Shown: positions 4,170 through 63,202, numbered from the stretch's first letter. The stretch is DNA of 64,000 nucleotides from Candidatus Omnitrophota bacterium (GCA_026387455.1 JAPLLR010000043.1:9683-73682), one strand, 5' to 3'. The notes: generated by a model from the letters alone, not told the origin. Translations and numbers: made by a program.

Positions 4170-4198
4170 GAGGACGTTCCGGGAAAGGAGCGAAAGAG

Positions 4199-4717
4199 AT
4201 GGATGTTTTAGAAATTCTCAAAAGCAGAAGAAGCGTCAGGCAATACTCAGAAGAGCAGATATCAAAAGAATTTTTGGAGAAGATTGTTGATGCGGCCAGG
4301 TTTTCCCCTACTGCCAGAAATGTCCAGCCGTGGGAGTTTATTGTGATCACTCAAGCGCCTATTTTAAAAAAGCTTGGTGATTTAGCGGAGAACGCAAGAT
4401 TTCTAGCCCAGGCAAAAGCCTGTATCGCGGTATTTTGCGCTGATACAAAATATTATTTGGAAGATGGATGCGCCGCAACCTGTAATATTCTGCTTGCCGC
4501 GACTGCTCTGGGCGTTGGTTCCTGCTGGGTTGCCGGAGATAAGAAACTTTATTGCGAGGAAGTAGCTAAATTATTAAATGTACCTGTCACCTATAAATTG
4601 GTGAGCCTGGTGGCTTTAGGCTACCCTAAGTCCAAAGAAAGTTTCCATATCGCGCAAAAGAGAGGCCTGAAAGAAGTGATTCATTGGGAGAAATTGAAGG
4701 ATGGAAAAAGAGAATAA
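4199..4717 (+). CDS. Nitroreductase family protein
   Basis: RRSVRQY...ARFSPTARNVQPWEFIVI signature of the NfsA/NfsB-type nitroreductase fold; SD GGAGCGAAAGAG upstream. Confidence 0.8.
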   Translation: MDVLEILKSRRSVRQYSEEQISKEFLEKIVDAARFSPTARNVQPWEFIVITQAPILKKLGDLAENARFLAQAKACIAVFCADTKYYLEDGCAATCNILLAATALGVGSCWVAGDKKLYCEEVAKLLNVPVTYKLVSLVALGYPKSKESFHIAQKRGLKEVIHWEKLKDGKRE

Positions 4718-5480
4718 GGCAGTAGATAAAATTATACTTGTAGCACTTGTATTTGTAGGACTAATTCTGGCGATCCATGTTTTGTTGGTAAGGATGTATC
4801 AGGGCCTAATGCGCCTTGACTATTATAATGCTTCCTGTCTGTCAGGCATTACTATCCTTGTTTTCTTTTATGCCGCTATAAAGTTCAGTAAACCGCTGGA
4901 GCATCAAATCGTTAATTTTGTCTATTTTAAAGATAAACGGCATTATAAAACGCTGTTAGACGAGTCGATCCGCGATGGTTTGACCGGTTTGTTTGGTCAT
5001 AAATATTTTATGCAAAAGCTTGAAGAGGAGGTGGAGCGCTCTAAGAAGAGCCTAAGTCCGCTTTCGCTACTGATGATAGACATAGATTATTTCAAGAAAT
5101 TTAACGATACTTTTGGCCACCTTGAGGGTGATATGATCTTGACGGAACTCGCAGCTATGTTCAAGCGCTTTCGCAGGGAACAAGTCGATCTAGCCGCCCG
5201 CTATGGAGGGGAAGAGTTTGTCATACTGCTTCCGGAAACGTCCAAAGAAAACGCGAAGATTCTGGCTGAGGAATTGCTCAATCACGCAAAGAAAATCAAT
5301 ACCAGTAAGGGCGTGGTCACCATAAGCATCGGCATTGGTTGCTTTGACGGCAACAGTAAAGATTTTGCTAAAGAAGATCTGATCAGGATCTCAGACGCTG
5401 CGCTTTACCGCGCCAAAGCAGCGGGAAGGGATCGCGTGGAGATTCAAAGGGAGAGCGAGAAGGATGTATGCGAAGAATAA
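4701..5480 (+). CDS. Membrane-anchored GGDEF-domain diguanylate cyclase
   Basis: Two to three N-terminal TM helices, then DGLTGLFGHKYF, DIDYFKKFNDTFGH and the RYGGEEF active-site motif. Confidence 0.85.
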   Translation: MEKENKAVDKIILVALVFVGLILAIHVLLVRMYQGLMRLDYYNASCLSGITILVFFYAAIKFSKPLEHQIVNFVYFKDKRHYKTLLDESIRDGLTGLFGHKYFMQKLEEEVERSKKSLSPLSLLMIDIDYFKKFNDTFGHLEGDMILTELAAMFKRFRREQVDLAARYGGEEFVILLPETSKENAKILAEELLNHAKKINTSKGVVTISIGIGCFDGNSKDFAKEDLIRISDAALYRAKAAGRDRVEIQRESEKDVCEE

Positions 5481-6271
5481 TCAGTCTTATAGCATTGGCA
5501 GTTTTTTTTACGGTTATTCTTTGTCAGGCCTGTGAGCCTGAGCTCAAGGTGCTTAAGATCGAGCACGGGAGCGCGCAATCATTGTTTGAAGTGGCGAATA
5601 GCTTGAAAAGTGAGCAAGGCAAGGTAAGCTTTGACCAGAACTCCAACAGCCTGATCGTGTTTGATTGTCCGGAGAATATTTTGCGTATTGCCCAGGTGAT
5701 CAAGGGCATAGATATCCGGGAAAAGCAGGTCGAGATCAAAGTCCTGGTCATAGAGGCCAGCGAAAGATTCCTGGAGAATATCGGGGTTAGTTACAGTCAG
5801 GTCATTATCCCTCAGGGAAAGTTTATGGCGATTACGGAGCTGATCAAGGAAAGTAAAGAGGCCAGCACCCGTACTAGCATGATGGTCCGGACTTTGAGTA
5901 ATCGTCCGGCAGTGCTGCAGGTCACTACTGACGAGGTGATCGGTACCGAATTCGTGATATTCAGCAATGGTACGGAGATCACAACACCTGTAAGAGAGCC
6001 GATAGGCAGCATGTTGGAAGTATTGCCTACTGTGAATAACGATGGCTCGATTAATGTGGTCTTAAGGCCAACGGTCAACAGCATGGAGAAGCACGGCACT
6101 CCTTCTGAGAGGTCGATAATAACCCAGGTAGTGCTTAATGACGGAGATACTGTCGCAATAGGTGGAGCTCTGGTCCAAAAGGGGCGCTCCAAGAAAGGGC
6201 TTTTGTCAGGAAAATCCAGCGAGGAGAATAAGAAAGTGGAGATGTTTCTGACCGCTAAAATTGTTGATTAA
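5468..6271 (+). CDS. Minimal secretin-like outer-membrane protein (secretin N domain plus a short secretin core)
   Basis: Signal peptide; an N-domain-like segment (LKVLKIEHGSAQSL...IVFDCPENILRIAQVIKGID), then a secretin-core-like segment (QVEIKVLVIEASERFLENIGVSY...VEMFLTAKIV) that resembles PilQ/GspD C-terminal regions; only 267 aa. Confidence 0.5.
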   Translation: MRRIISLIALAVFFTVILCQACEPELKVLKIEHGSAQSLFEVANSLKSEQGKVSFDQNSNSLIVFDCPENILRIAQVIKGIDIREKQVEIKVLVIEASERFLENIGVSYSQVIIPQGKFMAITELIKESKEASTRTSMMVRTLSNRPAVLQVTTDEVIGTEFVIFSNGTEITTPVREPIGSMLEVLPTVNNDGSINVVLRPTVNSMEKHGTPSERSIITQVVLNDGDTVAIGGALVQKGRSKKGLLSGKSSEENKKVEMFLTAKIVD

Positions 6272-6325
6272 GGGTAGCCGGAGATTTGGGGATCTTTTTA
6301 AAATCCTCGTACTCGTAAATAAAAT

Positions 6326-9300
6326 ATGATTATCAAAGATTTGATTTTAGTTGACGAATTAACCGGGCATTATAACCGCAGGGGTTTTCGTGAGAGCATC
6401 GGACAGATACTTTCACTTCCCCATGGCGCTGCCAAATCCTTTTATCTTATCCTTACCGATTTAGACCATTTTAAAGATATTAATGACACCTACGGCCACT
6501 TAAGCGGAGACTTCGTGCTTAAGGAATTCGCGGCGCTTTTGGAGCGCGGATTACAGAATACCGAAGCGGTAATTGCCCGCTACGGCGGCGATGAATTTGT
6601 GGCGATTCTAAAAAACTGCAATAGGCAAAATGTAAGCGTCATCTGGGACAAGATACGGCGGGATGTTGCCAATAAAGAATTTATCCTCCCTGGTTCCAAG
6701 CAGAGCCTGCGTCTGACCATGAGCATAGGGATCGTGGAATTCCCTCAGGATGGGTTAACCCAGGAAGAACTGTTAGCTAAAGCCGATGAAGCCCTGTATT
6801 CATCAAAGAGGCTCGGTAAAAACAAACTCACCTTTGCCAACGAGATCCTTGTCCAGACCAAAGAAGAAAAAAGGATCCAAAAGAATATTGCTGAGCCGCC
6901 GTTTGTTGACCGGGCAAACGAATTAGCCGAGATCCAGAAGTTTATTTTTGGAGGGAAAAGCTATAAGCTTATTATCATAAATGGTGAGGTGGGCTGCGGT
7001 AAAAGCCGTATGCTCCAGGAGGTATCCATCCGGGCAAAGGCAAGGAACCTAAAAACATTCTTTCTTGTCTGCGGCGAACAGCAGAAAGAAAAGCCTTACA
7101 GTCTGCTGGAAGATATCATAGGTAGCCTTGTTTACGAGCATGTCGAAATATGCCAAAAGGCGGTGTTCGATCTTCCGCCGAAATTAAAAACCGCGCTCTC
7201 CGCATTACCAAAATTAAAAAGATTATTTGTGCCTCATCTTCATGTGACCCATTGGGATGCCGAGGTGAGGCTAAATCTATTCCACGGGCTCGCAGACCTT
7301 TGTGAAAGCATATTCACCCAGATAAATCCGCTTATTATCGTGGACAATCTCGATTGGATCGATGCCGCAAGCTCAGAAATATTAAGTTTCATAATCCTGT
7401 CTAAGAAACAGACTCCTTTTGTCTTATTAGGAAGCACCAGCCGCCCGGCTTCAAAAACGCACGATAGCGATTCAGCTCTTGATGCGTTGTTGTCGGAGAT
7501 CTCGGAGTTTGAGATTGTGCCTCACATAGCCCTGCCGTTTTTTAATCAGGCAGAGACCGAAGAAGTCGTAAAGGGGATTTTTAGCGGCCATGATATACCT
7601 GAAAAATTCACCAGCGAGTTCTTCGGCGCTACCGAAGGCAACCCCTTTTTCATTGTCGAGTTAATACAATACCTTTGGGACAGGAAAAACATTTATCTGC
7701 AATATCCTCATTGGATATTTCAAATTGACACAAGCCGGCTTCCGAGGGATTTAAGGGAGCTGCTTATCAGCAAGCTGCAAAACCTAGGGGCCGAAGAAAA
7801 GGAATTGCTTCTGGCTGTTTCCGGCATAGGGAGCAACCTTAAGTTTGATTTCCTTTCCAAGCTTAAAAAGATAAACCACGGGCACTTGCAGGATATCCTT
7901 TCCCGCATCTCAGAAAAAAATATCCTAAAGCTCGGAGAAAATCAGGTCGAAGATGAGGTTTTCTTCAATAACGATTCCCTGCGCTCGGTTCTTTATGAGA
8001 GTATCGATACTGAGAAGAAAAAGAAGATCCACCTTGATATTGCTACCACTCTTGAGCATGAATTCAAGAATAATACCGAAGAGATAAGCTCGGAGCTGGC
8101 CTTCCATTTCAACAAGGCAAATCTTGAAGCTAAGACAAAAAACTATGCCCAGCAGGCGGTCGTCTATATCGAAAACCTTTTTTCAAACGCTGAGGCGGAA
8201 AAGGTCATCGAAAATGCCATTAACGACCGGGAAGAGAAGGAGCGCCATGAGCCGATAAAAAAAGATACCTGGCCGCTGATAATGGAGATCATTAGCTCTT
8301 TTAATTCAGCGATAAAAAGTATGCAGATGTACCAGATGCCTAATGAGATCACCACAAAGATGGTCTATAGCCTAGCCAGATGTTTGGAAGAATTTTTTAC
8401 GGCCTACCATATACTTACCTTTAGCTGTCCGTCCGGAGATATCAAGCTTTTGATAAACGGGCAGGAATTGCATCTGCCATCCCATTCGGAAGATATGTTT
8501 ACAAAGACCATTCTTGCCATTATGAACATGGCTAATATCGGAAGCATTACTTTTCATCGCACTGTTTCGGCTAATGAGATCAAGGCATTTATCGGCCTTC
8601 TTTCTAATCCCAAACTATCGATGGAAAAAAAGGAACAATGGAAAAAGATCCTCCTTGATTATAAGATCAACGCCATAAATATCGATGAGGTGCTCTACAA
8701 AAAAGTCTATTCCGAAGAAGAAAAAAGGCAGTTGCATAAGGAATTCATCAAAGAATTCATGATAAAAAGAGCTATCGGAGAGGCTGTTCCTCTGCCGAAG
8801 GAAGGTGGCGCTAAGGTTGGTGACGAGAAAGAAGAGACCAAGGTCATCAAAAAAATAAAGGTTTTCGATGAAGCGGAAACAGACCTTTTTGCTAAAACCA
8901 TCTCCCATTTTTCGCCGGACGTGCTAGTGGAGGTAATTACTGATGAATACCGCCGTCATATAACAGCGATCTTGGATATCAGGGAAATGGTCAAGGTGTG
9001 CCTGAAAGACTCCCAACAAAAAGAAACAATCGCCGTAAAATTGAAAGATGCCCTAATAAAGTTGGGGATGTCGGATGTCTGCTTTGCGTGGCTTATCGAT
9101 AGTCATGATTTTCTGCACTATCCTGTGATCAAGAGGGCCAACACATATTTGAATGCTGATTCCGGAACTATTCTTGCTATGGGGGTTATAGAAAATCTTA
9201 AACCCACCCTTAATGAACTTTTTGTAATAAATGAAAGCGCTCTTGCAGAACAGATCTTGGATAAATATCTTCTGAATTTACAAAGCAGCGAGCTGGAAGC

Positions 9301-10213
9301 AAAGATATATACGGCCGTAACCTTGCCGGAGATCATAAAGATCATTCCCGCGCACCTTGCGGATTTCTACGTGAAAAGAATCACCGCTCTTTTTCTTCAG
9401 GCGCTTCATGTTGAAAATGATCAGCAAGCTTATGAATCGCTTGCGATGGATGCGGGGGCTATTATTTCTCGCTTACAGGAACTCAGCAATTATTGGGATA
9501 TCTATAGGGTTATCTCTACGCTAAAAGAAGATCTTAATGCTTCAGGAGGGCTTGTCTGGAGGAGGCAATTGGCTAAGGAAGCCTTGAAAGGAATAGACAT
9601 ATTTTCTCTGTGCGCTCAGCTAGCAAGTATTCTTGATGAAGTCGCCTTTGATGCCAGCAAGAATGCCTTAGTTATCTCTCTCTTTAAGAAGATGATGCCG
9701 GAAGGGATCCTTTATTTTATTGAGACATTAGAAACAAGGCAATCGAGCACCCTGCTTTTCGAATGGTACCTGCAGAACCTGGAATTACTGGATATACTCA
9801 AGGAATTTAAAACCGAAACCGTGCCTTTCATAGAAATGCTTATTGATTCAGGGGCACAGAAAAGGGTATTGCTTGCTTTAGATATAATGGAAAGGATAAA
9901 TGATGAACAGCAACTTCCTCTTTATGAAAAAGCTATTCAAAGCAATGACCTGGAGATTAAAAGAAATTATTTTCGATCGCTTATTCAGATGAATACAGAA
10001 AGCGCTTTTTCAATGATAAAAAGATTATTTCCCAGACAGGACCCCGAGACACAGCGGGATATTGTCATAGATATGGGGGTGTATGGGAGCAGAAAAGAGA
10101 TGAGTGAGTTTTTGAAAAGCCTGCTTGACCAGAAAATTTATGGGTTAGGCCGAAAAGAAATACTTTTGTACATTGATAAAATTAATACTTGCCTATCTCA
10201 TAAAGGGAAGTAG
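6326..10213 (+). CDS. Large multidomain signalling protein: N-terminal GGDEF domain, P-loop NTPase (AAA_16/STAND-like), and about 850 aa of helical (HEAT/TPR-like) repeats
   Basis: LTGHYNRRGF, DLDHFKDINDTYGH and RYGGDEF motifs in residues 1-170; Walker A GEVGCGKS and Walker B LIIVDNLDWID; long C-terminal helical region. Confidence 0.8.
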   Translation: MIIKDLILVDELTGHYNRRGFRESIGQILSLPHGAAKSFYLILTDLDHFKDINDTYGHLSGDFVLKEFAALLERGLQNTEAVIARYGGDEFVAILKNCNRQNVSVIWDKIRRDVANKEFILPGSKQSLRLTMSIGIVEFPQDGLTQEELLAKADEALYSSKRLGKNKLTFANEILVQTKEEKRIQKNIAEPPFVDRANELAEIQKFIFGGKSYKLIIINGEVGCGKSRMLQEVSIRAKARNLKTFFLVCGEQQKEKPYSLLEDIIGSLVYEHVEICQKAVFDLPPKLKTALSALPKLKRLFVPHLHVTHWDAEVRLNLFHGLADLCESIFTQINPLIIVDNLDWIDAASSEILSFIILSKKQTPFVLLGSTSRPASKTHDSDSALDALLSEISEFEIVPHIALPFFNQAETEEVVKGIFSGHDIPEKFTSEFFGATEGNPFFIVELIQYLWDRKNIYLQYPHWIFQIDTSRLPRDLRELLISKLQNLGAEEKELLLAVSGIGSNLKFDFLSKLKKINHGHLQDILSRISEKNILKLGENQVEDEVFFNNDSLRSVLYESIDTEKKKKIHLDIATTLEHEFKNNTEEISSELAFHFNKANLEAKTKNYAQQAVVYIENLFSNAEAEKVIENAINDREEKERHEPIKKDTWPLIMEIISSFNSAIKSMQMYQMPNEITTKMVYSLARCLEEFFTAYHILTFSCPSGDIKLLINGQELHLPSHSEDMFTKTILAIMNMANIGSITFHRTVSANEIKAFIGLLSNPKLSMEKKEQWKKILLDYKINAINIDEVLYKKVYSEEEKRQLHKEFIKEFMIKRAIGEAVPLPKEGGAKVGDEKEETKVIKKIKVFDEAETDLFAKTISHFSPDVLVEVITDEYRRHITAILDIREMVKVCLKDSQQKETIAVKLKDALIKLGMSDVCFAWLIDSHDFLHYPVIKRANTYLNADSGTILAMGVIENLKPTLNELFVINESALAEQILDKYLLNLQSSELEAKIYTAVTLPEIIKIIPAHLADFYVKRITALFLQALHVENDQQAYESLAMDAGAIISRLQELSNYWDIYRVISTLKEDLNASGGLVWRRQLAKEALKGIDIFSLCAQLASILDEVAFDASKNALVISLFKKMMPEGILYFIETLETRQSSTLLFEWYLQNLELLDILKEFKTETVPFIEMLIDSGAQKRVLLALDIMERINDEQQLPLYEKAIQSNDLEIKRNYFRSLIQMNTESAFSMIKRLFPRQDPETQRDIVIDMGVYGSRKEMSEFLKSLLDQKIYGLGRKEILLYIDKINTCLSHKGK

Positions 10214-10223
10214 GGGAGATGGA

Positions 10224-10865
10224 ATGATGAAAAAAACGATTCCTATTATGATTGCGGCGATGCTGTTGACAGTAACGGCATTTGCACAAGAGGCAAAGAC
10301 TATTCAGTTACCCAAGCCGAATATGAGCGGCGGGAAACCCCTAATGCAAGCGCTTAAAGAGCGCAAAAGTGTCCGTGAATTCAGCTCTAAGGAACTTACG
10401 CCGCAGGTTTTGTCGGACATGCTCTGGGCGGCAAACGGGATCAATCGTCCTGAGTTAGGATATCGCACCGCTCCCAGCGCCCATAACGCGCAGGAGATCG
10501 ATATCTATGCCGTGTTATCAGACGGGTTGTATTTATTTGATGCTTTGGCGCATGAGCTAAAGTTGATCGCGTCGGGAGACCTACGCGGCCTTACAGGTAA
10601 ACAGCCTTTTGTTAAAGAGGCAGCGGTTAATTTGATCTATGTCGCAACACTTTCTAAATTGGGAAACGCGTCCAGCGAAGACGCGGCTTTTTATGCGGCT
10701 ACTGATGCAGGATTTGTCAGCGAAAACGTGTATTTGTATTGTGCTTCAGCAGGTTTAGCTACTGTCGTGCGGGGGTGGGTGGATAAGACAGCTTTGGGAA
10801 AAGTGATGAAGCTAAGGCCAGATCAAAAGGTGATCCTTGCGCAAACCGTAGGCTATCCGAAATAA
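10224..10865 (+). CDS. Secreted SagB-type nitroreductase-family protein
   Basis: Signal peptide MMKKTIPIMIAAMLLTVTAFA; KSVREFSSKELTPQVLSDMLWAANGINRPE...APSAHNAQEID as in SagB/ThcOx-type dehydrogenases. Start moved to the ATG at 10224, which has an SD GGGGAGATGG (the ORF track starts at 10173, inside the previous gene). Confidence 0.7.
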   Translation: MMKKTIPIMIAAMLLTVTAFAQEAKTIQLPKPNMSGGKPLMQALKERKSVREFSSKELTPQVLSDMLWAANGINRPELGYRTAPSAHNAQEIDIYAVLSDGLYLFDALAHELKLIASGDLRGLTGKQPFVKEAAVNLIYVATLSKLGNASSEDAAFYAATDAGFVSENVYLYCASAGLATVVRGWVDKTALGKVMKLRPDQKVILAQTVGYPK

Positions 10866-10869
10866 AATC

Positions 10870-11280
10870 ATGGTGAATCTGGATAAAGAAAAATCATTGC
10901 ATGAGTTGATGATCCGCCTCGGGGTGCGCGAAGAGGATATAGAAGAAAAGTTTATCCGCTCCCAGGGGCCAGGCGGGATGAACGTTAACAAGGTTTCGAC
11001 CTGCGTGTATTTGCGGCATCTGCCAACCGGCATAGAGGTCAAATGCCAGCAGGAGCGCTCGCAGGCACAGAACCGATTTCTAGCCAGGCGGATTTTGTTG
11101 AGCAAGATTGAATCCAGTATTTTGGGCAGGCTTTCCGCGGAAAGAATGCGCATCGAGAAGATCCGCCGGCAGAAGCGCAGGAGATCCCGCCGGGCCAAGC
11201 TGAAAATCTTAGAGGCAAAGCGCCGGCATTCTCAGAAAAAATCTCTTCGCACCAGGGTGCGGCAGGGGGAAGATCAGTGA
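10870..11280 (+). CDS. ArfB-like RF-1 domain protein with GGM in place of the catalytic GGQ
   Basis: IRSQGPGGMNVNKVSTCVYLRH aligns with ArfB/YaeJ [22 protein letters not shown]; the basic C-terminal tail is as in ArfB; the codon is ATG, not CAG/CAA. Confidence 0.7.
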   Translation: MVNLDKEKSLHELMIRLGVREEDIEEKFIRSQGPGGMNVNKVSTCVYLRHLPTGIEVKCQQERSQAQNRFLARRILLSKIESSILGRLSAERMRIEKIRRQKRRRSRRAKLKILEAKRRHSQKKSLRTRVRQGEDQ

Positions 11281-11300
11281 TCTGCGCGTTAAATTGCTCT

Positions 11301-11329
11301 TGACTGATGGAGCTTGGCCGAATACAATA
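11301..11329 (+). promoter_or_regulatory. Sigma70-like promoter (TTGACT - 17 nt - TACAAT)
   Basis: Hexamers read from the sequence; lies about 200 nt upstream of carB. Confidence 0.4.
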
Positions 11330-11469
11330 GTACAAACATTAAAATCAGTTACAAAGGCTTGGGCTTAATGCTTCTAGCGGTAAAATCACACCAGAAATAT
11401 TTTAGGCAACTCTTGAGAATTTAGAGGGTTGCTTATTTTTTTACCCTAGCCTGCTTAAAATTTAATAAT

Positions 11470-11520
11470 ACACCCAACTTTATAGGAGAAGTTGGTGTTC
11501 CGCTTCCTGCGGAAGGAGGT
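11470..11520 (+). promoter_or_regulatory. Conserved two-hairpin 5' leader motif ending in GCGGAAGGAGGT, 5 nt before the carB ATG
   Basis: Near-identical to 23890-23940; hairpin 1 is CAACTT/AAGTTG here versus CTGGC/GCCAG in the other copy (covariation); hairpin 2 is TTCCGC-TTCCT-GCGGAA overlapping the SD. Confidence 0.55.
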
Positions 11521-16715: not shown

Positions 16716-17210
16716 ATGCCAAATTTTTCGTTTGATGTAGTCTCCGAGGTTGACTTGCAGGAGATGGACAATGCCGTGAATCAGGCGAGTAAGGAGCTGG
16801 CTCAGAGATATGATTTTAAGGGCAGCAAATCCTCGATCGCCTATGACCGCACGGAAAAGCTGGTCACCCTGATAGCCGATGACGATTTTAAACTGCGCGC
16901 CCTTACTGATATGTTGGTCGGCCGCATGGCTAAAAGAGGCATATCCGTTAAGTCCCTTAAATTCAATGATCCGGAAAAGGCTTTTGAAGGGTACCTGCGT
17001 CAGAAAATCGAGATCTGTATGGGTATTGACAAGGAAAACGCCAAAAAGCTTACCGGCATTATAAAAGAGCTGGGCCTGAAAGCGCAGGCTCAGATCGAGG
17101 GAGAAAAGATCAAGGTCTCTTCCGCGAAAAAGGATGATTTGCAGGCAGTGATCGCGCATCTAAGGGCTCTGGAGTTTCCTATACCGCTCAGTTTCTGTAA
17201 TTACCGCTAG
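16716..17210 (+). CDS. yajQ: YajQ-family (UPF0234) nucleotide / c-di-GMP-binding protein
   Basis: MPNFSFDVVSEVDLQEMDNAVNQASKELAQRYDFKGS is the characteristic YajQ N-terminus; 164 aa. Confidence 0.85.
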   Translation: MPNFSFDVVSEVDLQEMDNAVNQASKELAQRYDFKGSKSSIAYDRTEKLVTLIADDDFKLRALTDMLVGRMAKRGISVKSLKFNDPEKAFEGYLRQKIEICMGIDKENAKKLTGIIKELGLKAQAQIEGEKIKVSSAKKDDLQAVIAHLRALEFPIPLSFCNYR

Positions 17211-57044: not shown

Positions 57045-57245
57045 ATGGCAAAGTTAATGGACATAGATGAATTGGCCGACTATCTTCGCTTAAAGAAGCA
57101 GACTATTTATAATTGGCTGCATCAACGCAAGATTACCGGGATAAAGGTCGGAGGCGTCTGGAGATTTGAGCATAAAGAAGTTGACAATTGGCTCAAAAGC
57201 AAGAGGCGCTTATCCAAGGACCAAAAATCTGGAGATAAACAATGA
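57045..57245 (+). CDS. Excisionase-family (HTH_17 / MerR-superfamily) DNA-binding protein
   Basis: IDELADYLRLKKQTIYNWLHQRKITGIKVGGVWRF; stop overlaps the pilM start (ATGA). Confidence 0.7.
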   Translation: MAKLMDIDELADYLRLKKQTIYNWLHQRKITGIKVGGVWRFEHKEVDNWLKSKRRLSKDQKSGDKQ

Positions 57246-58792
57246 GTTCATTAGGTATCTATTTCGGGCCCAAGGTCATTAGTGTAGTAGAAACCGGCAA
57301 TAAGAAGCTTATCGCTAACACCCAGCTGTTGCAATCGACAGTCGCGACCGGAGAGCTGGGAGAAAAGGTTCCGACCGAGCTTAAGACTATTGAGATTGTA
57401 GCGCTCTTTAAGGATGAGTTGCGCAGAAATAAGATCAATGCCAAAGAGGCTACGCTTAGCCTTTCCGGAAAGGACCTGATCATCCGCAATTTTGATATCC
57501 CTGTCTTGCCGCGTGAGGAGATAGGTAGTGCCATTACTTTTGAGGCGAAGAAGTATATTCCTTTTAAGATGGAAGAACTGGTTTCTGATTATCAGCTAGA
57601 GCTTGATAAGGTCAACAAGAGGAATCAAGTCCTTTTCATGGGTATCAAGAAAGAGGCTCTTGAGCGTTACCTTACTATAACTAGCGAGTTGGGCATCAAG
57701 GTTCTGTCTATAGAGTATTCGGCGTTTAGCCTTATCCGGGCGCTGGGGCTATCGGGTATTAGCGATAAGGGCATTGTCGGTATTGTCTGCGCCGACCTTA
57801 AGGGCGAAGATGAGGTCAACTTTACCGTACTTGAGAATGGTTTTCCGGTTTTTAGCCGGGATATCACCTTAGCCGGCGGGCCCGATGAGTTCAGCCGGGG
57901 TGCTGAGTCGGATGTAGGTATGGCTATGGAAAAGATTAAGACCGAGATCCGCGTGTCTTTAGATTATTACCACCGTAAGTTCCCGGCCAAGAACATCCAG
58001 AAGTTATTCCTTATTTCAAATCCCGAGCATCGTTCTGAGCTGGAGGCTTCAGTAATCGATACTGGCCTTTCAGCGCAGTTTCTCGATCTGTCTAAGTATT
58101 TCGGAAAGCCAGTGCAATTCGATTCTAACTTCGTCAAGGGGTTTACTACGTCCCTTGCACCTGCGATCCGCAGTGGTATCAAGTTAAACCTTTTGGCGGC
58201 TCGCGCGCGTAAACAAGCGGGATCGGCCAAAATCGGACAAGTAGATGTGGCAACGCTTTTTAAAGGGCTAAAAATAAACTCGCTGGTGATTGTGTTGGGG
58301 GTAGCGATATGCGCCGGGGTGATCATTTACGGCCAGACTCAGACCAAGCCCCTGAAGGAAGAATTGGCTCAGGTAATCAGTAAGCAGGTAAAAGTTGCTT
58401 CGGTAAATCCTGGCGCCACTATTGATGAGATGCGCGATGTGGATAAAAAGTTCAAAACCCGCCTTAAGGAACTTGACACGCTGGTAAAAAAGCAGCTTTA
58501 TCTGACCCAGCCGCTTGATGTGATACCGCGGGTGATCCCGGACGGGGTGTGGCTGACTGACTTTACTTTCAAAAAAGATAAGGGCGATGGGGACCTGCAG
58601 CTTAGTGGTTTAGCAGACATGGGTGATGGTGAGAAGGAGTTTGAGGCGGTTAATAAATTCATTGCCAGCCTTAAAGAGAACCCGAACTTCACCAAGTATT
58701 TTACTAATATTAAACTTTTGGTGCTTGATCGTGCAGAGAGTGGAGACGCAGTGAACATGACGGCGTTCTCTATTTCCTGTAAAACTAATTAA
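57242..58792 (+). CDS. pilM: Type IV pilus assembly protein, PilM-PilN fusion
   Basis: Actin-like PilM region (about 330 aa), then a TM helix (LVIVLGVAICAGVII) and a PilN-like periplasmic domain. Confidence 0.75.
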   Translation: MSSLGIYFGPKVISVVETGNKKLIANTQLLQSTVATGELGEKVPTELKTIEIVALFKDELRRNKINAKEATLSLSGKDLIIRNFDIPVLPREEIGSAITFEAKKYIPFKMEELVSDYQLELDKVNKRNQVLFMGIKKEALERYLTITSELGIKVLSIEYSAFSLIRALGLSGISDKGIVGIVCADLKGEDEVNFTVLENGFPVFSRDITLAGGPDEFSRGAESDVGMAMEKIKTEIRVSLDYYHRKFPAKNIQKLFLISNPEHRSELEASVIDTGLSAQFLDLSKYFGKPVQFDSNFVKGFTTSLAPAIRSGIKLNLLAARARKQAGSAKIGQVDVATLFKGLKINSLVIVLGVAICAGVIIYGQTQTKPLKEELAQVISKQVKVASVNPGATIDEMRDVDKKFKTRLKELDTLVKKQLYLTQPLDVIPRVIPDGVWLTDFTFKKDKGDGDLQLSGLADMGDGEKEFEAVNKFIASLKENPNFTKYFTNIKLLVLDRAESGDAVNMTAFSISCKTN

Positions 58793-58805
58793 AGGGATAA
58801 ATACT

Positions 58806-59318
58806 ATGGGATCAGACCAGGCAAATAAAAACAAGAACTTAGTACTGAATCTTATCGTCGTTGTCATTGCCGGCGTTGTCGCTTTTAATCTTTATCAGAA
58901 AAATGAGCAGGCCAAGAAGAAGCTCTCAGGCAATATTAAAGAGGAGCAGGAGAAGTCTCAGGTGCTGGAGGGGATTGACCAGTCAGAGAAGACTATGGCC
59001 GCTTATCGTAAGCTTCTAAGTAAAAAAGACACCAACCTGGTCATGGCGTCAATCACTAATATGGCTAAGGAATTCGGTATCCGGGTGGTCACTGTCAAGC
59101 CGGTGCCGGAGGTAAGATTAAATGAATTCATCAGGACGCCCTTTGTTCTAACAGTAGCTCCTCTTAGTTACCATGCGTTGGGTAAATTCATCAGCGCTAT
59201 AGAGAGCGCTCAGGATGTTTATGTGGTGGATTCGGTTGAGATCAAAACAGGCCAAGAGGGAGAGCCCGGCAAGCTTATGGCTAATGTAACTATCACCTCC
59301 ATAGCGCTGGCAGAATAA
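58806..59318 (+). CDS. pilO: Type IV pilus assembly protein PilO-like
   Basis: N-terminal TM, coiled coil, C-terminal domain; position after pilMN. Confidence 0.6.
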   Translation: MGSDQANKNKNLVLNLIVVVIAGVVAFNLYQKNEQAKKKLSGNIKEEQEKSQVLEGIDQSEKTMAAYRKLLSKKDTNLVMASITNMAKEFGIRVVTVKPVPEVRLNEFIRTPFVLTVAPLSYHALGKFISAIESAQDVYVVDSVEIKTGQEGEPGKLMANVTITSIALAE

Positions 59319-59322
59319 AATT

Positions 59323-59766
59323 ATGAGAATAACTAAATATTGTTTATTGTTTTTGGTGATCCTCCTAAATACGGTTTTTTCTGTGGTTTGTTTTGCGCAG
59401 ATCTTTGAGGGCGCTGATAAAACTGTTTCGGGATCATCGCCGGATCAACTCTTACGGCCTAAGGTCGATTATTCGGCTCAAGGGTTACGCGATCCCTTTA
59501 TGGGTAAAGAGGGAAAGTCCGGGACAGGCGAGGTTTCTAGCCCCGTAGATAAGAAGCCTTTGCCGGCGCTTACGGTGCAAGGGGTCATTTGGGGAGGGAA
59601 TTTTCCGCAGGCGATCATCAATAATAAGGTTTTAAAAGTTGGGGATACGATAGAAGGTGTCAAGATAAAGTCTATTGCCAAGGAAGGCATAATTGTCTTA
59701 TTCGAAGGGTCAGAATCAATTATCTCATCACCGGCTGCTGGATCCGGCGCCGGAACCAGTTCTTAA
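59323..59766 (+). CDS. pilP: PilP-like secreted protein
   Basis: Signal peptide; C-terminal beta-domain pattern VQGVIWGG...NNKVLKVGDTIEGVKIKSIAKEGIIVLFEG. Confidence 0.55.
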   Translation: MRITKYCLLFLVILLNTVFSVVCFAQIFEGADKTVSGSSPDQLLRPKVDYSAQGLRDPFMGKEGKSGTGEVSSPVDKKPLPALTVQGVIWGGNFPQAIINNKVLKVGDTIEGVKIKSIAKEGIIVLFEGSESIISSPAAGSGAGTSS

Positions 59767-59827
59767 CACCCCAATACCCCCAAACTTAATGGATAGTTTG
59801 GGGTGAGCTTGTGCTCAAGGAGGTTAC

Positions 59828-61462
59828 ATGAAATCTTATCTAAGGTCAGGGCTAATTATTTTCTTGCTCGCTATGTTCATGCCTGTATCAAGGTTGTCAG
59901 CCGATGCCTCGCTTCCGCGGCCTGATGTTGAGCCGGCTATCTCTATGGATTTTCAGGACGCTAACCTTAAGGATGTCCTTAAAGTATTTTCTATCCAGTC
60001 GGGAATGAATTTCCTTGCCAATGAAGGTGTTCAAGATAGGAAAGTCACCCTCTATATGGATAAGGTTCCCTTGAGTGAGGCGATGGATAATCTGTTTAAG
60101 GCTAATAATCTTTCCTATAATATGGATCAGCAGGCCAGGATTTTTGTGGTTAAGGATTGGGGAAAGCCGACAGTTGAGACAGTGACCAAGATTTTTTTCC
60201 TTAAGAACGCCTCAGTATCTTCTTCTTCCATAAAGGAAGAAATGAGTGCTGGTCTGACCGGCGGGATAACAGCTGACTTTGATCCGAGTGCCGTATCATC
60301 TTCCACTGCCACCAGCTCAACGTCAGATAGCGGTTCTAGTTCTAGCTCAGGAAAATGGAAGGTAGAGGAGGAGTCAGGGATCACCTATGCCATTAAGAAG
60401 ATCCTTTCTACTAATGGCTCATTGATTGAAGACTACCGCACAAATAGCCTTATTGTCACTGATATCCCTAGCCGCATGGAAGTGATCATGCAGGTCGTGG
60501 CTACGCTGGATATTCCAGTGGCGCAGGTATTGCTGGAAGTAGAGATGCTGGATGTGTCTAAGAACGTAGTGGATCAGCTGGGTGTACAGTGGCCGACGAC
60601 TTTAGCAAGCTTGACTGTTTCCGGTTCCAAGGTGACATCATTTCCTTTTGGGGACAAGATTGGCACAAGCCCTCAAGGCGGGGAAATTGTTCCTGGCCCC
60701 AACCAGTTTGGTGGAGGTTGGGATTTTCCTAGTTGGGGAGCTGCACACTTTGGGCCTTCAATCTTTACCCTTATCGGCAGTACTTTGACTTTTGATTTTC
60801 TGACTACGCAAACCGATACTAAGATCTTGGCGCGTCCGCGGGTAATGACTTTGAATAATGAGACCGCAGAGATAAGGATTGCCGTAAAGGAATCTATTGG
60901 ACAGGACACTTCGACCACTTCAACAGGCGGTACGGGAAATACGACTAGTGCGGCAGAGCGTTATTGGACCGGCGTCATTCTTCGGGTTAGTCCTCAGATC
61001 AATGTGGATGCAGGAGAAATAACGCTTTTTGTTTATCCGAGTGTAGCTACCTCCCAAGTAGGAAATACTATTATTGTGAATGGCGAAACTAATACATACA
61101 GGGATCCAGAAGTAAGAAGCACCAAGCAGACGGTTAAGCTTAAAGACGGAGAGACTATTGTTATCGGTGGTCTGATCCGTAATGATAGCCAGACCGTGGT
61201 CAGCAAGCTTCCTATTCTGGGAGATATTCCTTTTATTGGCGCAGCTTTCAGGCACAAGTCTCAGACCCCCGGCAAAGAGCGCGAGCTGTTGGTGTTTATC
61301 ACACCACATATCATTCGTGACGTAAAGCCTTCTGAAGTTGCGCAGGGGCCTAAACCGATGAGAGCGGCAAGAGCGGTGATGTCTCAGAGAGAACAAGGTG
61401 AGGCTGTTGTAGTGAACAGACAGGCTTCCATCAATAAATATATCAGCAACTACGAGAAATAA
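59828..61462 (+). CDS. pilQ: Type IV pilus / T2SS secretin
   Basis: Signal peptide, N-domains, Ser/Thr-rich linker, secretin core ending KLPILGDIPFIGAAFRHKSQT...ELLVFITPHIIRD. Confidence 0.9.
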   Translation: MKSYLRSGLIIFLLAMFMPVSRLSADASLPRPDVEPAISMDFQDANLKDVLKVFSIQSGMNFLANEGVQDRKVTLYMDKVPLSEAMDNLFKANNLSYNMDQQARIFVVKDWGKPTVETVTKIFFLKNASVSSSSIKEEMSAGLTGGITADFDPSAVSSSTATSSTSDSGSSSSSGKWKVEEESGITYAIKKILSTNGSLIEDYRTNSLIVTDIPSRMEVIMQVVATLDIPVAQVLLEVEMLDVSKNVVDQLGVQWPTTLASLTVSGSKVTSFPFGDKIGTSPQGGEIVPGPNQFGGGWDFPSWGAAHFGPSIFTLIGSTLTFDFLTTQTDTKILARPRVMTLNNETAEIRIAVKESIGQDTSTTSTGGTGNTTSAAERYWTGVILRVSPQINVDAGEITLFVYPSVATSQVGNTIIVNGETNTYRDPEVRSTKQTVKLKDGETIVIGGLIRNDSQTVVSKLPILGDIPFIGAAFRHKSQTPGKERELLVFITPHIIRDVKPSEVAQGPKPMRAARAVMSQREQGEAVVVNRQASINKYISNYEK

Positions 61463-61483
61463 GGCCCTGCGGAAAACTTTCTT

Positions 61484-63202
61484 ATGGCCAAAGAGAAGTA
61501 TCTTAGATTAGGTGAGCTTTTGGTGCAGGAAAGCCTTATCAGCGCGGACCAGCTGGAAAAAGCCATAAGCACGCAGCGGCAGGAGGGTGGCCGCCTCGGT
61601 GAGATCGTGGTGAAGTTGGGGCTGGTGAAAGAAGACCAGCTAGTGGCGGTTCTCGGCCGGCAGCTGAATATCCCATATTTTTCGCTTGGAACCGGGATGC
61701 TTAAGCCCGCCAATGATCAGGGCCTTGAGCGTTTGATCCCGCAGGAATTCGCCATAAAGAATTCAGTTCTTGCGCTGTCCCGTACACTCAAATCCCTTAC
61801 CGTTGCATTAGCAGATCCCCTAGATTTAATCCTCTTAGATAATTTGCGTAAACTTACAGGTTGCGAAGTAAATGCGGTTGTGGCCACTAAGTCTGATATT
61901 GCCAAGGCGGTAGCGGATTTCTACGGCAAGTCCGCTATGCTTAAGGATGCGGTGGATGCCAGCTATGATGTCACTTCCTTTGAGTTCTCTCCCGAGGCGG
62001 ATGTATCCGGCCAGGAGCTAAGCCTGGATAAAATGATCGCCCGCGCGGAAGAGGCGCCGGTAGTAAAATTAGTGGATTTGGTTATTCATCAGGCCATTGA
62101 TGAACGCGCGTCCGATATTCATATCGAGCCGTTTAAGGACAGGATAAACTTACGCTATCGCATAGACGGGAAGCTTTATGAGATCCCCCCGCCGGCAAAG
62201 CATATGCATATGGCAATCATTTCGCGTATTAAGATTCTTTCCAAGTTAGATATAGCTGAAAAGCGCCTTCCTCAGGACGGCGCTTTTATGGTGAAGATGG
62301 AAAATCTTCCCGTAGACATCCGTGTTTCGACAATTCCGACAATTTACGGCGAGAAAGTGGTAATGCGCCTTTTGAATCGCAGTCAGGTAGTGCTGGATTT
62401 AGCTAGAATGGGGTTTGAGCCAAAACAGTTAGAGGATATGCGTAAATCCATCAATGCCCCCTATGGTCTGGTGTTCTTGACTGGGCCCACAGGTAGTGGA
62501 AAGACTACTACGCTTTACGCCATGCTTAATGAGATCAAAAGCCCATCGAAAAATATTATTACTGTCGAAGATCCCGTGGAGTATAAATTGGAGGGGATCA
62601 ATCAGGTTCAGATTAAGCCTGAGATAGGCCTTACTTTTGCAGCGAGCCTGCGCAGCTTTCTGCGTCAGGATCCTGACGTCATGCTGGTAGGCGAGGTGCG
62701 CGATTTAGAGACTGCGCAGATCTGTATCCGCTCAGCGCTTACGGGCCACTTGGTGTTAAGTACTTTACATACAAATGATGCTTCTTCGGCGGTCACCCGT
62801 CTCATGGATATAGGTATCGAGTCTTACATGCTTGCTCCTTCCATAGTATGTGTTGTGGCCCAGCGTCTGCTGCGTAAGATTTGTCCTGAGTGTAAGGAAG
62901 CATACGAGCCTACCCCTGAGCAGCTTAAGCATGTCAAATTGAAGGCAGAATTGATTTATCGGGCCAAAGGCTGCCCAAAGTGTAATCAATTAGGGTACAA
63001 GGGAAGGACTTGTATAGGCGAGGTGATGGTGGTCAATGCCCAGATACAGGAGCTGATCAACCAGAAGGCTTCCTTTCAGAGGATCAGGGAAGTGGCTCGC
63101 GCCGCCGGAATGCAGACATTGTATGAATCAGGATTGCGCAAGGTGGAAGAGGGTATCACTTCTTTAGAAGAAGCGCTTTCCGTTACTATAGGAGCTGAAT
63201 AA
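61484..63202 (+). CDS. pilB: Type IV pilus assembly ATPase (GspE/PilB family) with an N-terminal MshEN c-di-GMP-binding domain
   Basis: Two 24-residue MshEN motifs (RLGELLVQESLISADQLEKAISTQ and RLGEIVVKLGLVKEDQLVAVLGRQ); Walker A GPTGSGKTTT; tetracysteine motif CPEC...CPKC. Confidence 0.92.
   Translation: MAKEKYLRLGELLVQESLISADQLEKAISTQRQEGGRLGEIVVKLGLVKEDQLVAVLGRQLNIPYFSLGTGMLKPANDQGLERLIPQEFAIKNSVLALSRTLKSLTVALADPLDLILLDNLRKLTGCEVNAVVATKSDIAKAVADFYGKSAMLKDAVDASYDVTSFEFSPEADVSGQELSLDKMIARAEEAPVVKLVDLVIHQAIDERASDIHIEPFKDRINLRYRIDGKLYEIPPPAKHMHMAIISRIKILSKLDIAEKRLPQDGAFMVKMENLPVDIRVSTIPTIYGEKVVMRLLNRSQVVLDLARMGFEPKQLEDMRKSINAPYGLVFLTGPTGSGKTTTLYAMLNEIKSPSKNIITVEDPVEYKLEGINQVQIKPEIGLTFAASLRSFLRQDPDVMLVGEVRDLETAQICIRSALTGHLVLSTLHTNDASSAVTRLMDIGIESYMLAPSIVCVVAQRLLRKICPECKEAYEPTPEQLKHVKLKAELIYRAKGCPKCNQLGYKGRTCIGEVMVVNAQIQELINQKASFQRIREVARAAGMQTLYESGLRKVEEGITSLEEALSVTIGAE

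Follow-up and report, generated by a model that had tools for sequence, protein, structure and literature searches.

An orphan half-size secretin and a GGDEF-STAND protein in a probably lineage-specific gene block of an Omnitrophota bacterium

A 64,000-nt sequence from a Candidatus Omnitrophota bacterium (GCA_026387455.1 JAPLLR010000043.1:9683-73682), the whole of which is termed the window here, carries three adjacent genes encoding a small membrane-anchored GGDEF protein, a 267-aa secretin-like protein (the mini-secretin), and a 1295-aa GGDEF-STAND protein (the giant). The initial annotation regarded this block as a secretin tied to a dedicated pair of cyclases. Our analysis argues instead that the block is probably no dedicated c-di-GMP/secretin module but three functional genes, each evolving independently, that came recently and by chance to lie side by side in one Omnitrophota lineage; they include a half-size orphan secretin and a STAND-type cyclase whose gene was exchanged as a cassette. 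As the proposed module fails, the gene order establishes no new principle of regulation.

ORF calling placed the three genes on the + strand at 4701-5480, 5468-6271, and 6326-10213, co-directional and overlapping or tightly spaced as the initial annotation had described. The stop of the first GGDEF gene and the start of the mini-secretin gene overlap by 13 nt. Nitroreductase-family genes flank the block on both sides, also as annotated. The upstream one (4199..4717, + strand) encodes a cytoplasmic protein of 172 aa (Pfam Nitroreductase, 91.7 bits; TM1586_NiRdase, 60.6 bits), and its stop overlaps the start of the GGDEF gene. The downstream one (10224..10865, + strand) encodes a nitroreductase/SagB-like protein that apparently carries a signal peptide at its N-terminus (Pfam Nitroreductase, 87.7 bits; TIGR03605 SagB, 55 bits, under the cut-off). 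Its open frame extends over 10173-10865, and the ATG at 10224, beyond the stop of the giant, is the probable start because of the translation and the gene calls of 210-211 aa in two related loci, L008 and L092. This protein shows just 67% identity to those of L008 and L092, whereas its neighbours show approximately 90-97%. The packing of the block is the norm in the window: 61 of 62 genes lie on the + strand, gaps have a median of 7 nt, and overlaps occur in 26% of adjacent pairs; the co-directional, tight arrangement is not above chance for the window.

A sequence scan of both gaps between the genes of the block detected nothing resembling a terminator, and the counts of a promoter/terminator scan were no higher than those of shuffles. 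Because of the 13-nt overlap, the lack of terminator-like sites, and the gene order kept in three genomes (the window, L008, and L092), the three genes are probably co-transcribed in the window lineage, and some regulatory coupling may exist. All three are under purifying selection (dN/dS 0.09-0.19). The overlap and the kept order, together with the intact catalytic motifs of both cyclases and a PilB with MshEN motifs, are consistent with a functional operon in which a dedicated cyclase pair controls the production or gating of the small secretin, within a c-di-GMP regulon that includes YajQ and PilB. We consider such an operon improbable: overlap and co-directionality are usual in the window, and the gene neighbourhoods, the history of the giant gene, and the nature of the secretin also argue against it, as described below.

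The neighbourhood comparison covered roughly ten lineages from metagenomes, for some of which the flanks were short. The three-gene block was found elsewhere only in L008 and L092, which are ~92-94% identical to the window (L001), and in L092 the overlap is already gone, with 9133 as the last position of the GGDEF gene and 9143 as the first of the secretin gene. None of nine further mini-secretin lineages (77-38% identity) has an adjacent cyclase, and no GGDEF was found in the fetched flanks (0.8-10 kb per side) of eight loci representing seven of those nine lineages. Giant orthologues likewise occur without an adjacent secretin in all three contexts outside the block, namely L009 (91.5% identity), L093 (81%), and L094 (47%). 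In L009, the giant lies 4.2 kb from the mini-secretin on the same backbone with six housekeeping genes between them, and no secretin was detected in the flanks of the L093 and L094 orthologues. The linkage is thus gone at secretin identities of 77% or less, and the claimed tie between the secretin and a cyclase pair finds no co-conservation past genomes of ~92% identity.

The immediate neighbours of the mini-secretin form ten different pairs in ten lineages, among them carB/RF-1, GMP-synthase-like/SIR2, PTA/SIMPL, SIR2/chorismate-binding, unknown/NYN, TPR/GH77, TilS-like/STAS, DUF4126/unknown, and KDPG aldolase/DUF456. All-vs-all clustering of these neighbourhoods revealed no recurrent partner apart from backbone genes, and no T2SS, T3SS, T4P, Tad, or inovirus cluster surrounds the gene in any of the ten lineages. 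PilZ or STAS genes occur a few kb from the mini-secretin in the distant loci L002, L003, and L006, which is a weak hint of an association with signalling.

By blastn, we delimited a recently exchanged segment at 6301..10214, which consists of the giant gene, 25 nt upstream of it, and one base past its stop. This segment is 92.9% identical in nucleotides to L009, compared with 66-82% for the other segments common to both, and its boundaries are sharp and gene-length. The dS value against L009 was 0.215 for the giant and saturated for the mini-secretin. Slow protein evolution was considered as the cause of the 91.5% protein identity between the two giants and was rejected, since synonymous sites show little divergence as well and the segment is sharply bounded at the nucleotide level. 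According to these nucleotide comparisons, the giant gene was recently transferred between lineages as a cassette of one gene, and this accounts for its position beside the secretin in the window but not in relatives. Arrival or replacement of the giant through recent single-gene exchange argues against a dedicated operon. The sharply bounded exchange of a 3.9-kb signalling gene is, moreover, a clean case of gene-level recombination in an uncultured phylum.

A coherent c-di-GMP regulon had also been proposed for the locus, with a YajQ protein and a PilB carrying MshEN motifs elsewhere in the window. Both proteins were confirmed: YajQ/DUF520 (16716..17210, + strand; Pfam DUF520, 200.7 bits) lies outside the block at a distance of 6.5 kb, and PilB (61484-63202, + strand; MshEN, 56 bits; two tandem MshEN motifs in the sequence) at 51 kb. 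Genes for arginine, lysine, and cofactor biosynthesis, ribosomal genes, and repair genes lie in between; therefore, these unrelated genes leave no coherent c-di-GMP regulon in the window. PilB belongs to a canonical type IVa pilus operon identified with Pfam (57242..63202), which also encodes, all on the + strand, a PilM-PilN fusion (57242-58792), PilO (58806-59318), a small protein (59323-59766), and a full-length PilQ secretin of 544 aa (59828-61462; Pfam Secretin, 136.8 bits, model positions 2-169 of 169). MshEN domains provide a c-di-GMP route to pilus and secretion ATPases, and the tandem motifs of PilB make c-di-GMP control of the pilus plausible in the window organism. The target of such control would be a cytoplasmic ATPase encoded 51 kb away and not a secretin, so that the route gives no support to the cyclase-secretin pairing. 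The mini-secretin itself is an exported protein in which no cytoplasmic or nucleotide-binding domain able to sense c-di-GMP was found.

The first gene of the block (4701..5480, + strand) encodes a protein of 259 aa that matched Pfam GGDEF with 139.3 bits and TIGR00254 with 154 bits. Hydropathy analysis indicated two N-terminal hydrophobic segments at approximately residues 10-32 and 45-63, followed by a short loop, and the GGDEF domain occupies residues 90-245 (nt 4968-5435). The catalytic motifs are intact, i.e., GGEEF at residue 169 and the metal/substrate motif DIDYFKKFND. The allosteric RxxD I-site, an optional feature five residues upstream of GG[DE]EF, is absent, and RREQVD (RxxxD) is present there instead. 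Among the loci compared, the gene is present only in the window, L008, and L092 (dN/dS 0.09-0.12). The protein is a minimal diguanylate cyclase with two transmembrane segments and no sensor domain.

The giant (6326..10213, + strand), named 'diguanylate cyclase' in its NCBI record (MCX5705491.1), was analysed with Pfam, NCBIfam, motif searches, and AlphaFold. An N-terminal GGDEF domain (residues 9-167, nt 6350-6826; Pfam, 138.8 bits) is followed by a P-loop NTPase (residues 193-413, nt 6902-7564). The AlphaFold model then predicted a winged helix with a helical arm (residues 414-690, nt 7565-8395), a small α/β domain (residues 696-787, nt 8411-8686), a disordered linker (residues 793-848, nt 8702-8869), and a HEAT-like solenoid (residues 849-1294, nt 8870-10207), all encoded on the + strand; a helix plus β-hairpin element, the arm, and the solenoid are recognisable in this model. 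The all-helical solenoid of ~445 residues has a pLDDT of 85-92, compared with 75 for the entire model of residues 414-1295, and is further supported by weak alphaRep/HEAT matches in the PDB (E 9e-6) and by Pfam HEAT_2 on two orthologues (P0190 and P0191). Profiles, motifs, and structure prediction thus agree with the earlier description of a membrane-anchored GGDEF protein and of an intact GGDEF fused to a P-loop NTPase. Of the ~850 aa of helical repeats ascribed to the giant, the solenoid stands, and the remainder comprises the winged helix with its arm, the α/β domain, and the disordered linker.

The GGDEF motif at residue 87, accompanied by DLDHFKDIND, is invariant in 11 giant orthologues, and Walker A (GEVGCGKS, residue 220) as well as a Walker B-like motif (LIIVDNLDW, residue 339) are conserved; Walker B has the form hhhhDN, with Asn as the second acidic residue, in 10 of the 11. 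As in the small cyclase, no RxxD I-site was found, and NTEAV occupies its position. The NTPase region matched AAA_22 with 29.8 bits (cut-off 27) and AAA_16 with 32.5 bits, just under the cut-off of 32.6, and residues 192-622 showed homology to a region of TIGR03903 (E 4.8e-23). Judged from sequence and models, this module has the features of a STAND P-loop NTPase of the AAA_16 type, with NTP binding and hydrolysis as predictions. A full-length homology search retrieved GGDEF-AAA_16-TPR proteins of WOR-3 and Hydrothermota as well as versions carrying HEAT_2 or HD-GYP. By its domain order, the giant adds a new protein to the GGDEF-AAA_16-repeat architecture, which is a recurrent one. It shares an N-terminal effector, a STAND NTPase, and a C-terminal helical-repeat sensor with GGDEF-AAA_16-TPR/HEAT and cyclase/kinase-AAA_16-TPR fusions, e.g., the TIGR03903 TOMM kinase/cyclase, and differs from TPR-type fusions in the extra α/β domain, the long HEAT-like solenoid replacing the TPRs, and the hhhhDN Walker B. 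Our search of the literature on GGDEF-STAND proteins found no description of this family and no experimentally characterised member.

Synthesis of c-di-GMP requires dimerised GGDEF domains. From homology and monomer models, we infer that a ligand or partner would bind the C-terminal solenoid and the α/β domain of the giant, that this binding would trigger nucleotide-dependent oligomerisation of the P-loop module, and that the N-terminal GGDEF domains would thereby be united. The c-di-GMP produced would act on cytoplasmic receptors encoded elsewhere, such as PilB with its MshEN motifs and YajQ. Defence systems often include STAND NTPases with repeat sensors, and the giant is of this type and moved horizontally as a cassette; it could accordingly be suspected that the giant and its neighbours form an Avs-like antiphage defence with c-di-GMP or a membrane pore as the effector. 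This is very improbable, because none of the five genes was matched by a PADLOC model, the catalytic motifs of the effector, an ordinary GGDEF, are conserved in the 11 orthologues, and the giant is a single gene among housekeeping neighbours that is highly conserved rather than diversifying (dN/dS 0.16-0.19).

The mini-secretin gene (5468..6271, + strand) encodes a signal peptide (approximately residues 1-20), an N3/Secretin_N domain (25-87), and a compact secretin core (88-267) that ends in the strand MFLTAKIVD. The proposed secretin homology was supported by profile searches, as both Pfam Secretin_N (PF03958; 38.8 bits, cut-off 28.2) and Pfam Secretin (PF00263; 44.1 bits, cut-off 27.5) matched, the latter partially over model positions 3-127 of 169. 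In profile alignments, the family profile reaches the terminal strand of GspD and PilQ. The predicted structure showed the β-α-β-β-α topology of N3 in residues 25-81 (pLDDT >90) and, in the monomer, a secretin fold with long-stranded inner and outer barrel sheets and gate hairpins. Cys22 and Cys67 covary in the family alignment and may form a disulfide. For the PilQ, GspD, and SctC equivalogs (TIGR02515, TIGR02517, and TIGR02516), the full-length scores versus the NCBIfam cut-offs were 74.8 versus 284, 69.4 versus 351, and 48.8 versus 238 bits, respectively, and no assignment to them was obtained.

Several elements of larger secretins are missing. Alignment of the family profile with PilQ and with XcpQ located the β-lip position at residues ~108-122 (5789..5833, + strand), which leaves ~15 residues compared with 68 in the PilQ of the window; profile positions 110-124 correspond to PilQ 255-322. 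The β-lip follows the first outer-barrel strand and is the main region that spans the membrane (PMC8563730, PMC6532946), with 36 residues in phage pIV, 51-60 in type II secretins, and up to ~80 residues (PMC8563730). At the position of the amphipathic helical loop (AHL; residues ~236-256; 6173..6235, + strand), a basic, polar QKGRSKKGLLSGKSSEENKK is found where PilQ has LPILGDIPFIGAAF, and the conserved motif of the VP-h-LGDIP-h-LG type is lacking. The mini-secretin reads 'KGLLSGKSS' there, basal family members keep the half-motif 'LFGVPLS', and the model has low pLDDT over residues 233-252. No profile match to an N0/STN domain was obtained, unlike for PilQ, and the mature protein begins ~5 residues before N3; no S-domain is present. 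The mini-secretin would thus be exported by its signal peptide and consist of one ring-building N3 domain and a gated compact double-barrel core, having lost N0, the β-lip, the canonical AHL, and any S-domain.

The same features recur across relatives. At least 60 clusters at 50% identity were found among the best 150 matches, with lengths of 249-310 aa (median 275 aa) and invariant core residues. The lip segment has 19 residues across 60 short clusters compared with a median of 44 in long secretins, the canonical P-h-h-G-D-I-P AHL motif occurs in 0 of 60 short and 55 of 80 long secretins, and the C-terminal extension is 1 residue in the short and 88 in the long ones. A profile search of GTDB representative contigs yielded three true family members; the other 77 loci were ordinary secretins and were left out. 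Mini-secretins are therefore a conserved Omnitrophota family of half-size orphan secretins, of which we found no description in the literature on minimal, short, mini, or truncated secretins or on Omnitrophota secretins.

The size of about half a PilQ, the partial Pfam Secretin match, and a score of 60 bits on the pIV PHROG might suggest a gene fragment in decay or a remnant derived from a phage (inovirus pIV-like), in either case devoid of cellular function. Conservation and selection effectively refute such an origin, whose probability we regard as negligible: length is maintained over the family, dN/dS is ~0.09, the invariant core and the covarying Cys pair are kept, and the profile aligns up to the terminal strand. 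Furthermore, the host PilQ outscores the mini-secretin on the pIV PHROG (136 versus 60 bits), no phage genes lie near mini-secretin loci, and the viral structure library (BFVD) contained nothing closer.

Alternatively, the mini-secretin could serve a type IV filament machine that has no secretin of its own and whose genes lie in another part of the genome (Tad, T2SS-like, or a second pilus system), either as its channel in the outer membrane or as an accessory subunit, or it could co-assemble with PilQ or RcpA. Omnitrophota commonly possess multiple systems for type IV filaments, T4aP and Tad (PMC10066038), T2SS-like GspF genes occur in the phylum (bioRxiv 10.64898/2026.06.07.730766), the core of PulD that is competent for assembly comprises N3 and the secretin domain (PMC4604470), and the fold and gate region of the mini-secretin are kept under purifying selection. 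Nevertheless, we judge this explanation unlikely. The gene is never in or beside a pilus or secretion cluster in ten lineages, the T4aP operon of the window has a complete PilQ, and the Tad systems of the phylum have RcpA (PMC10066038). The protein also lacks the lip and AHL for membrane insertion, and N0. The N0 domain docks secretins to inner-membrane platforms through GspC/PilP-type partners.

We tentatively suggest, as a possibility held with considerable doubt, that the ~270-residue orphans are a distinct class, the smallest natural secretins. Their gated double-barrel ring may either not span the outer membrane, acting as a periplasmic or inner-leaflet gate, or associate with the membrane by a new mode, e.g., through the basic loop replacing the AHL; in the ultra-small, possibly host-dependent Omnitrophota, they would have a role apart from known type II/III/IV machines. 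Secretins characteristically form outer-membrane channels as 12-15-mers that resist detergent; for the mini-secretin, ring formation, localisation, and pore function are proposed here from homology and monomer models. The family is a natural experiment on minimal secretin requirements, as it dispenses with the elements now credited with outer-membrane insertion (β-lip and AHL), pilotin binding (S-domain), and inner-membrane coupling (N0). Should the mini-secretin still make a channel, studies of secretin assembly and gating would gain an attractive model of small size, and the lip and AHL would not be universal; if its ring is purely periplasmic, it would represent a new use of the secretin fold.

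Comparison with known secretins illustrates the extent of this reduction. The most compact solved secretin is pIV of phage f1 (PDB 7OFH), which has an N0 domain, a 36-residue β-lip, and aromatic girdles for membrane positioning (PMC8563730). It is ~1.6 times as long as the mini-secretin and is phage-encoded, whereas the mini-secretin is chromosomal among housekeeping genes. The PilQ of the window shares a homologous N3 and secretin core with the mini-secretin (25% identity over 255 aligned columns), but the N-terminus of PilQ is of the STN/N0 type, its lip segment comprises 68 residues, it keeps the canonical LPILGDIPFIGAAF loop, and 48 residues form its C-terminal tail; the pilQ gene, unlike the orphan mini-secretin gene, sits between pilO and pilB. 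An engineered, truncated PulD (residues 28-42/259-660) consisting of the N3, C, and S domains multimerises and inserts in vivo and in vitro (PMC4604470). It has N3 and the secretin domain in common with the mini-secretin, and its assembly supports ring formation by a natural N3-plus-core protein. However, lip, AHL, and the S-domain that binds the pilotin are all retained in this PulD variant; as the mini-secretin lacks all three, membrane insertion is not to be assumed. The Tad secretin RcpA (PDB 8ODN) is reduced like the mini-secretin: its periplasmic part has just one N-domain, and its inner lip is a small coil-turn-coil that lies flush with the barrel (PMC10499894).

Three intact genes on the + strand, all under purifying selection, occupy window positions 4701–10213: a small GGDEF gene (4701–5480, 259 aa), a mini-secretin gene (5468–6271, 267 aa), and the gene for a giant protein (6326–10213, 1295 aa). 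The mini-secretin gene starts 13 nt inside the end of the small GGDEF gene and is followed by a 54-nt gap before the giant. Pfam profiles detected a GGDEF domain in the small cyclase (139 bits), and both Secretin_N (38.8 bits, cut-off 28.2) and Secretin (44.1 bits, cut-off 27.5) in the mini-secretin, the latter match being confined to model positions 3–127 of 169. In the giant, a GGDEF domain (139 bits) precedes a P-loop region that scored 32.5 with AAA_16 (cut-off 32.6) and 29.8 with AAA_22 (cut-off 27) and carries Walker A (GEVGCGKS) and Walker B-like (LIIVDNLDW) motifs. Residues 192–622 of the giant resembled a TOMM kinase/cyclase fusion family of NCBIfam (E = 4.8e-23), while its database annotation (MCX5705491.1) is just 'diguanylate cyclase'. 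An exact database match and the names attached to homologues assign the window to a Candidatus Omnitrophota MAG. Motif reading indicated that both cyclases retain GG[DE]EF and DxDxFKxxND and that the canonical RxxD I-site is absent from both. The small GGDEF protein, with two hydrophobic N-terminal segments and without a sensor domain, is ordinary. Both genes flanking the block are of the nitroreductase family (Pfam), and the window also encodes YajQ/DUF520 (16716–17210, Pfam) and a PilB (61484–63202) in which two tandem MshEN motifs are legible. All of these components, as well as the start/stop overlap, had been reported in the initial annotation and were confirmed.

That annotation further regarded the block as a c-di-GMP island, in which a dedicated cyclase pair is tied to a secretin within a coherent regulon including YajQ and the MshEN-containing PilB. 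The co-directional tight packing was not found to be special: 61 of the 62 window genes are + strand genes, neighbours are separated by a median of 7 nt, and 26% of adjacent pairs overlap, so that 'co-directional, tightly spaced' fits nearly any adjacent gene trio here. Promoter-like and terminator-like sites in 4000–11600 did not exceed their frequency in shuffled sequence. Co-transcription of the block within the window lineage is nevertheless likely, and incidental co-regulation could follow. YajQ and PilB lie outside any contiguous regulon, the rest of the window being housekeeping genes (carB, pyruvate kinase, ribosomal proteins, arginine and lysine biosynthesis, folate and pantothenate genes, UvrA, and ExbBD). 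Extreme strand bias and compaction extend over the whole window (1–64000), and the cumulative GC skew climbs steadily across its first 16 kb, the stretch profiled.

The block with both nitroreductase flanks was found again in two loci from close relatives, L008 and L092, where the orthologues were approximately 85–98% identical to those of the window (secretin, 94% and 92%, respectively). The gene overlap is not constant even among these genomes, as the GGDEF gene of L092 ends at 9133 and its secretin gene starts at 9143. In each more distant lineage, the secretin neighbours differ. The upstream and downstream genes are carB and RF-1 in L010 (secretin identity 77%), GMP-synthase-like and SIR2 in L009 (73%), PTA_PTB and SIMPL in L006 and L007 (64%), SIR2 and chorismate-binding in L011 (51%), unknown and NYN in L002 (47%), TPR and GH77 in L005 (46%), DUF4126 and unknown in L012 (42%), TilS-like and STAS in L003, L004, and L014 (41%), and KDPG aldolase and DUF456 in L013 (38%). 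A scan of the fetched flanks with a GGDEF profile built from two sequences, with which precomputed Pfam calls agree, detected GGDEF in the block genomes and L009 only. In L009, the giant is located 4.2 kb upstream of the secretin, separated from it by YajQ, RF-1, GNAT, pyruvate kinase, and the GMP-synthase-like gene. All-against-all neighbour clustering yielded no recurrent secretin partner within 6 kb; the sole recurring neighbours were backbone genes of the closest lineages and generic STAS proteins. No secretin and no small GGDEF gene lies near the giant orthologues of two further loci (L093, 81% identity; L094, 47%). The comparison covers about ten metagenomic lineages, and the flanks of some are short; in this sample, neighbourhood conservation of the three-gene 'island' fails beyond L008 and L092, and the island is not a conserved unit of function. 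The initial observation holds, and its functional interpretation is largely refuted.

Several other genes were noticed around the block. The downstream nitroreductase/SagB-like protein (10173–10865, probable start 10224) has an apparent signal peptide (MMKKTIPIMIAAMLLTVTAFAQ) and is 67% identical to its L008 and L092 orthologues, compared with approximately 90–97% for neighbouring genes. This nitroreductase-fold protein evolves unusually fast and is apparently exported. Two genes upstream of the small GGDEF gene, adjoining the nitroreductase flank, 2880–4169 encodes a C45-family (acyl-CoA:6-APA acyltransferase/choloylglycine hydrolase-like) autoproteolytic hydrolase with a hydrophobic N-terminal segment, which is kept in L008 and L092. 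In some distant lineages, PilZ or STAS-domain genes occur a few kb from the mini-secretin (L002 6759–7478 and 11899–12279; L006 7934–8503; L003 5865–6218).

Orthologues of the window and L009 share 56–87% protein identity and 66–82% DNA identity, with the giant as the exception: its identity is 91.5% at the protein level and 92.9% at the DNA level over 3,914 nt. This segment (window 6301–10214, L009 1847–5760) begins 25 nt upstream of the giant's ATG and ends one base beyond its stop codon. The dS of the giant to L009 was 0.22, equal to its dS to L008 and L092, both close relatives, whereas that of the secretin was saturated, as were the values for neighbours. The high DNA identity, sharp gene-length edges, and low dS indicate a recent event, horizontal exchange or recombination, in which the giant moved between Omnitrophota lineages as a one-gene cassette. 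Since the exchange was recent and the genomic context of the giant differs in every lineage looked at, its adjacency to the secretin is young and lineage-specific. The transfer is a clean example of the exchange of a single gene.

From its architecture, we infer that the giant is a STAND-type switch. In an AlphaFold model of residues 414–1295, a helix plus beta-hairpin element and a helical arm are followed by an alpha/beta domain, a disordered linker (793–848), and a confident HEAT-like solenoid (849–1294, pLDDT 85–92), which agrees with weak alphaRep/HEAT matches and with HEAT_2 calls on orthologues. The small mixed alpha/beta domain (approximately 696–787; window 8411–8686; pLDDT approximately 70–88), located between the STAND helical arm and the solenoid, had no Pfam match. 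Engagement of the sensor would lead to nucleotide-dependent oligomerisation and so unite the GGDEF domains for catalysis. The Walker B motif (residues 339–347) reads hhhhDN instead of hhhhD-D/E, and the Asn is present in 10 of 11 orthologues, down to 36% identity; this residue possibly permits nucleotide binding with slow or no hydrolysis. The giant had no match among PADLOC defence models. The GGDEF-AAA_16-TPR/HEAT architecture also occurs in WOR-3, Hydrothermota, and others, in some cases with an HD-GYP-type domain, and the giant is a further member of it.

The mini-secretin is a real, conserved secretin homologue and not a fragment. An initial homology search returned 33 clusters, each of 235–289 aa and with a lowest identity of 39%, the named ones being from Omnitrophota. 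An exhaustive profile search over 1.84 billion representatives placed 60 clusters at 50% identity (249–310 aa, median 275) among the best 150 matches, from which the family counts were taken. The dN/dS was approximately 0.09. The alignment of the family profile to GspD, and likewise to the PilQ encoded in the window, starts at N3, crosses the gate region, and reaches the terminal strand. Gate 1 is near full length, with 27 residues from T153 to the invariant G180 compared with approximately 31 in XcpQ, and its first hinge glycine appears to be replaced by a small residue. C22 and C67 were both present in 17 sequences and both absent in 16, a pattern that fits a periplasmic disulfide and may reflect one evolutionary event; it suggests that, in one sub-clade, the N3 domain is tethered by a disulfide to the N-terminus of the mature chain. 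Among the same best 150 matches, 51 were secretin-domain proteins of at least 2,500 aa and up to 5,532 aa. These (P0041, P0079, P0096, P0098, P0111, P0126, P0130, and others) have a C-terminal secretin core and 16–33 matched stretches, presumably long tandem N3/Secretin_N-like arrays.

A complete PilQ (544 aa, Secretin model positions 2–169 of 169) is already encoded in the genome, within a pilMN-pilO-pilQ-pilB operon, which makes the mini-secretin an extra, orphan paralogue. It scored far below the NCBIfam equivalog cut-offs for PilQ, GspD, and SctC, and database labels for the family are generic ('secretin N-terminal domain-containing protein', 'GspD/PulD'). The type IV pilus operon encodes PilM and PilN as one fusion protein of 516 aa (57242–58792), and a small protein between pilO and pilQ (59323–59766) gave a sub-threshold T2SSB score (26.7, cut-off 28.4) and no PilP match.

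The mini-secretin has neither N0 nor other N-domains, its mature chain starting a few residues ahead of N3. Lip and amphipathic helical loop (AHL) assignments were made from alignments to PilQ and XcpQ and literature definitions, not from a multimer structure. The beta-lip, described as the major membrane-spanning region (PMC6532946), directly follows the first outer-barrel strand and comprises 36 residues in phage secretins, 51–60 in type II, and approximately 80 in those with a cap gate (PMC8563730). In the alignment to PilQ, this segment has approximately 15 residues in the mini-secretin compared with 68 in the window's PilQ; family-wide it has 19, virtually without insertions, whereas the median for long secretins is 44. 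The AHL is reported for all structurally characterised secretins as their most conserved motif (PMC6532946). At its site, a basic polar loop ('QKGRSKKGLLSGKSSEENKK') in the mini-secretin takes the place of the PilQ sequence 'LPILGDIPFIGAAF', and basal family members have the half-motif 'LFGVPLS' only; the canonical pattern was found in none of the 60 short secretins but in 55 of the 80 long ones. The family also has no S-domain or C-terminal tail, with a median extension of 1 residue beyond the last strand compared with 88 in long secretins. No account of a short secretin family lacking the lip turned up in literature searches.

PulD engineered down to N3 and the C- and S-domains still assembles in vivo and in vitro (PMC4604470), and by analogy the mini-secretin probably assembles as a gated double-barrel ring of identical subunits. 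Lacking N0, such a ring would have no canonical docking to an inner-membrane platform. We tentatively propose, at somewhat under even chances, that it is a stand-alone gated ring. Type IV filament systems (T4aP and Tad) are common in Omnitrophota (PMC10066038), and the mini-secretin might instead be auxiliary to one encoded elsewhere, but we consider this unlikely, and no linkage to T4aP or Tad systems was seen. Of moderate interest, as a by-product of the analysis, is that minimal, lip-less orphan secretins make up a conserved family. The closest known relatives of the mini-secretin are phage pIV, the engineered truncated PulD, RcpA, and the genome's own PilQ, which have the fold and the N3-plus-core organisation in common with it. 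In contrast to these shared traits, it departs from secretins in four defining or near-universal features: the lip, the AHL, N0, and a system-linked genomic context.
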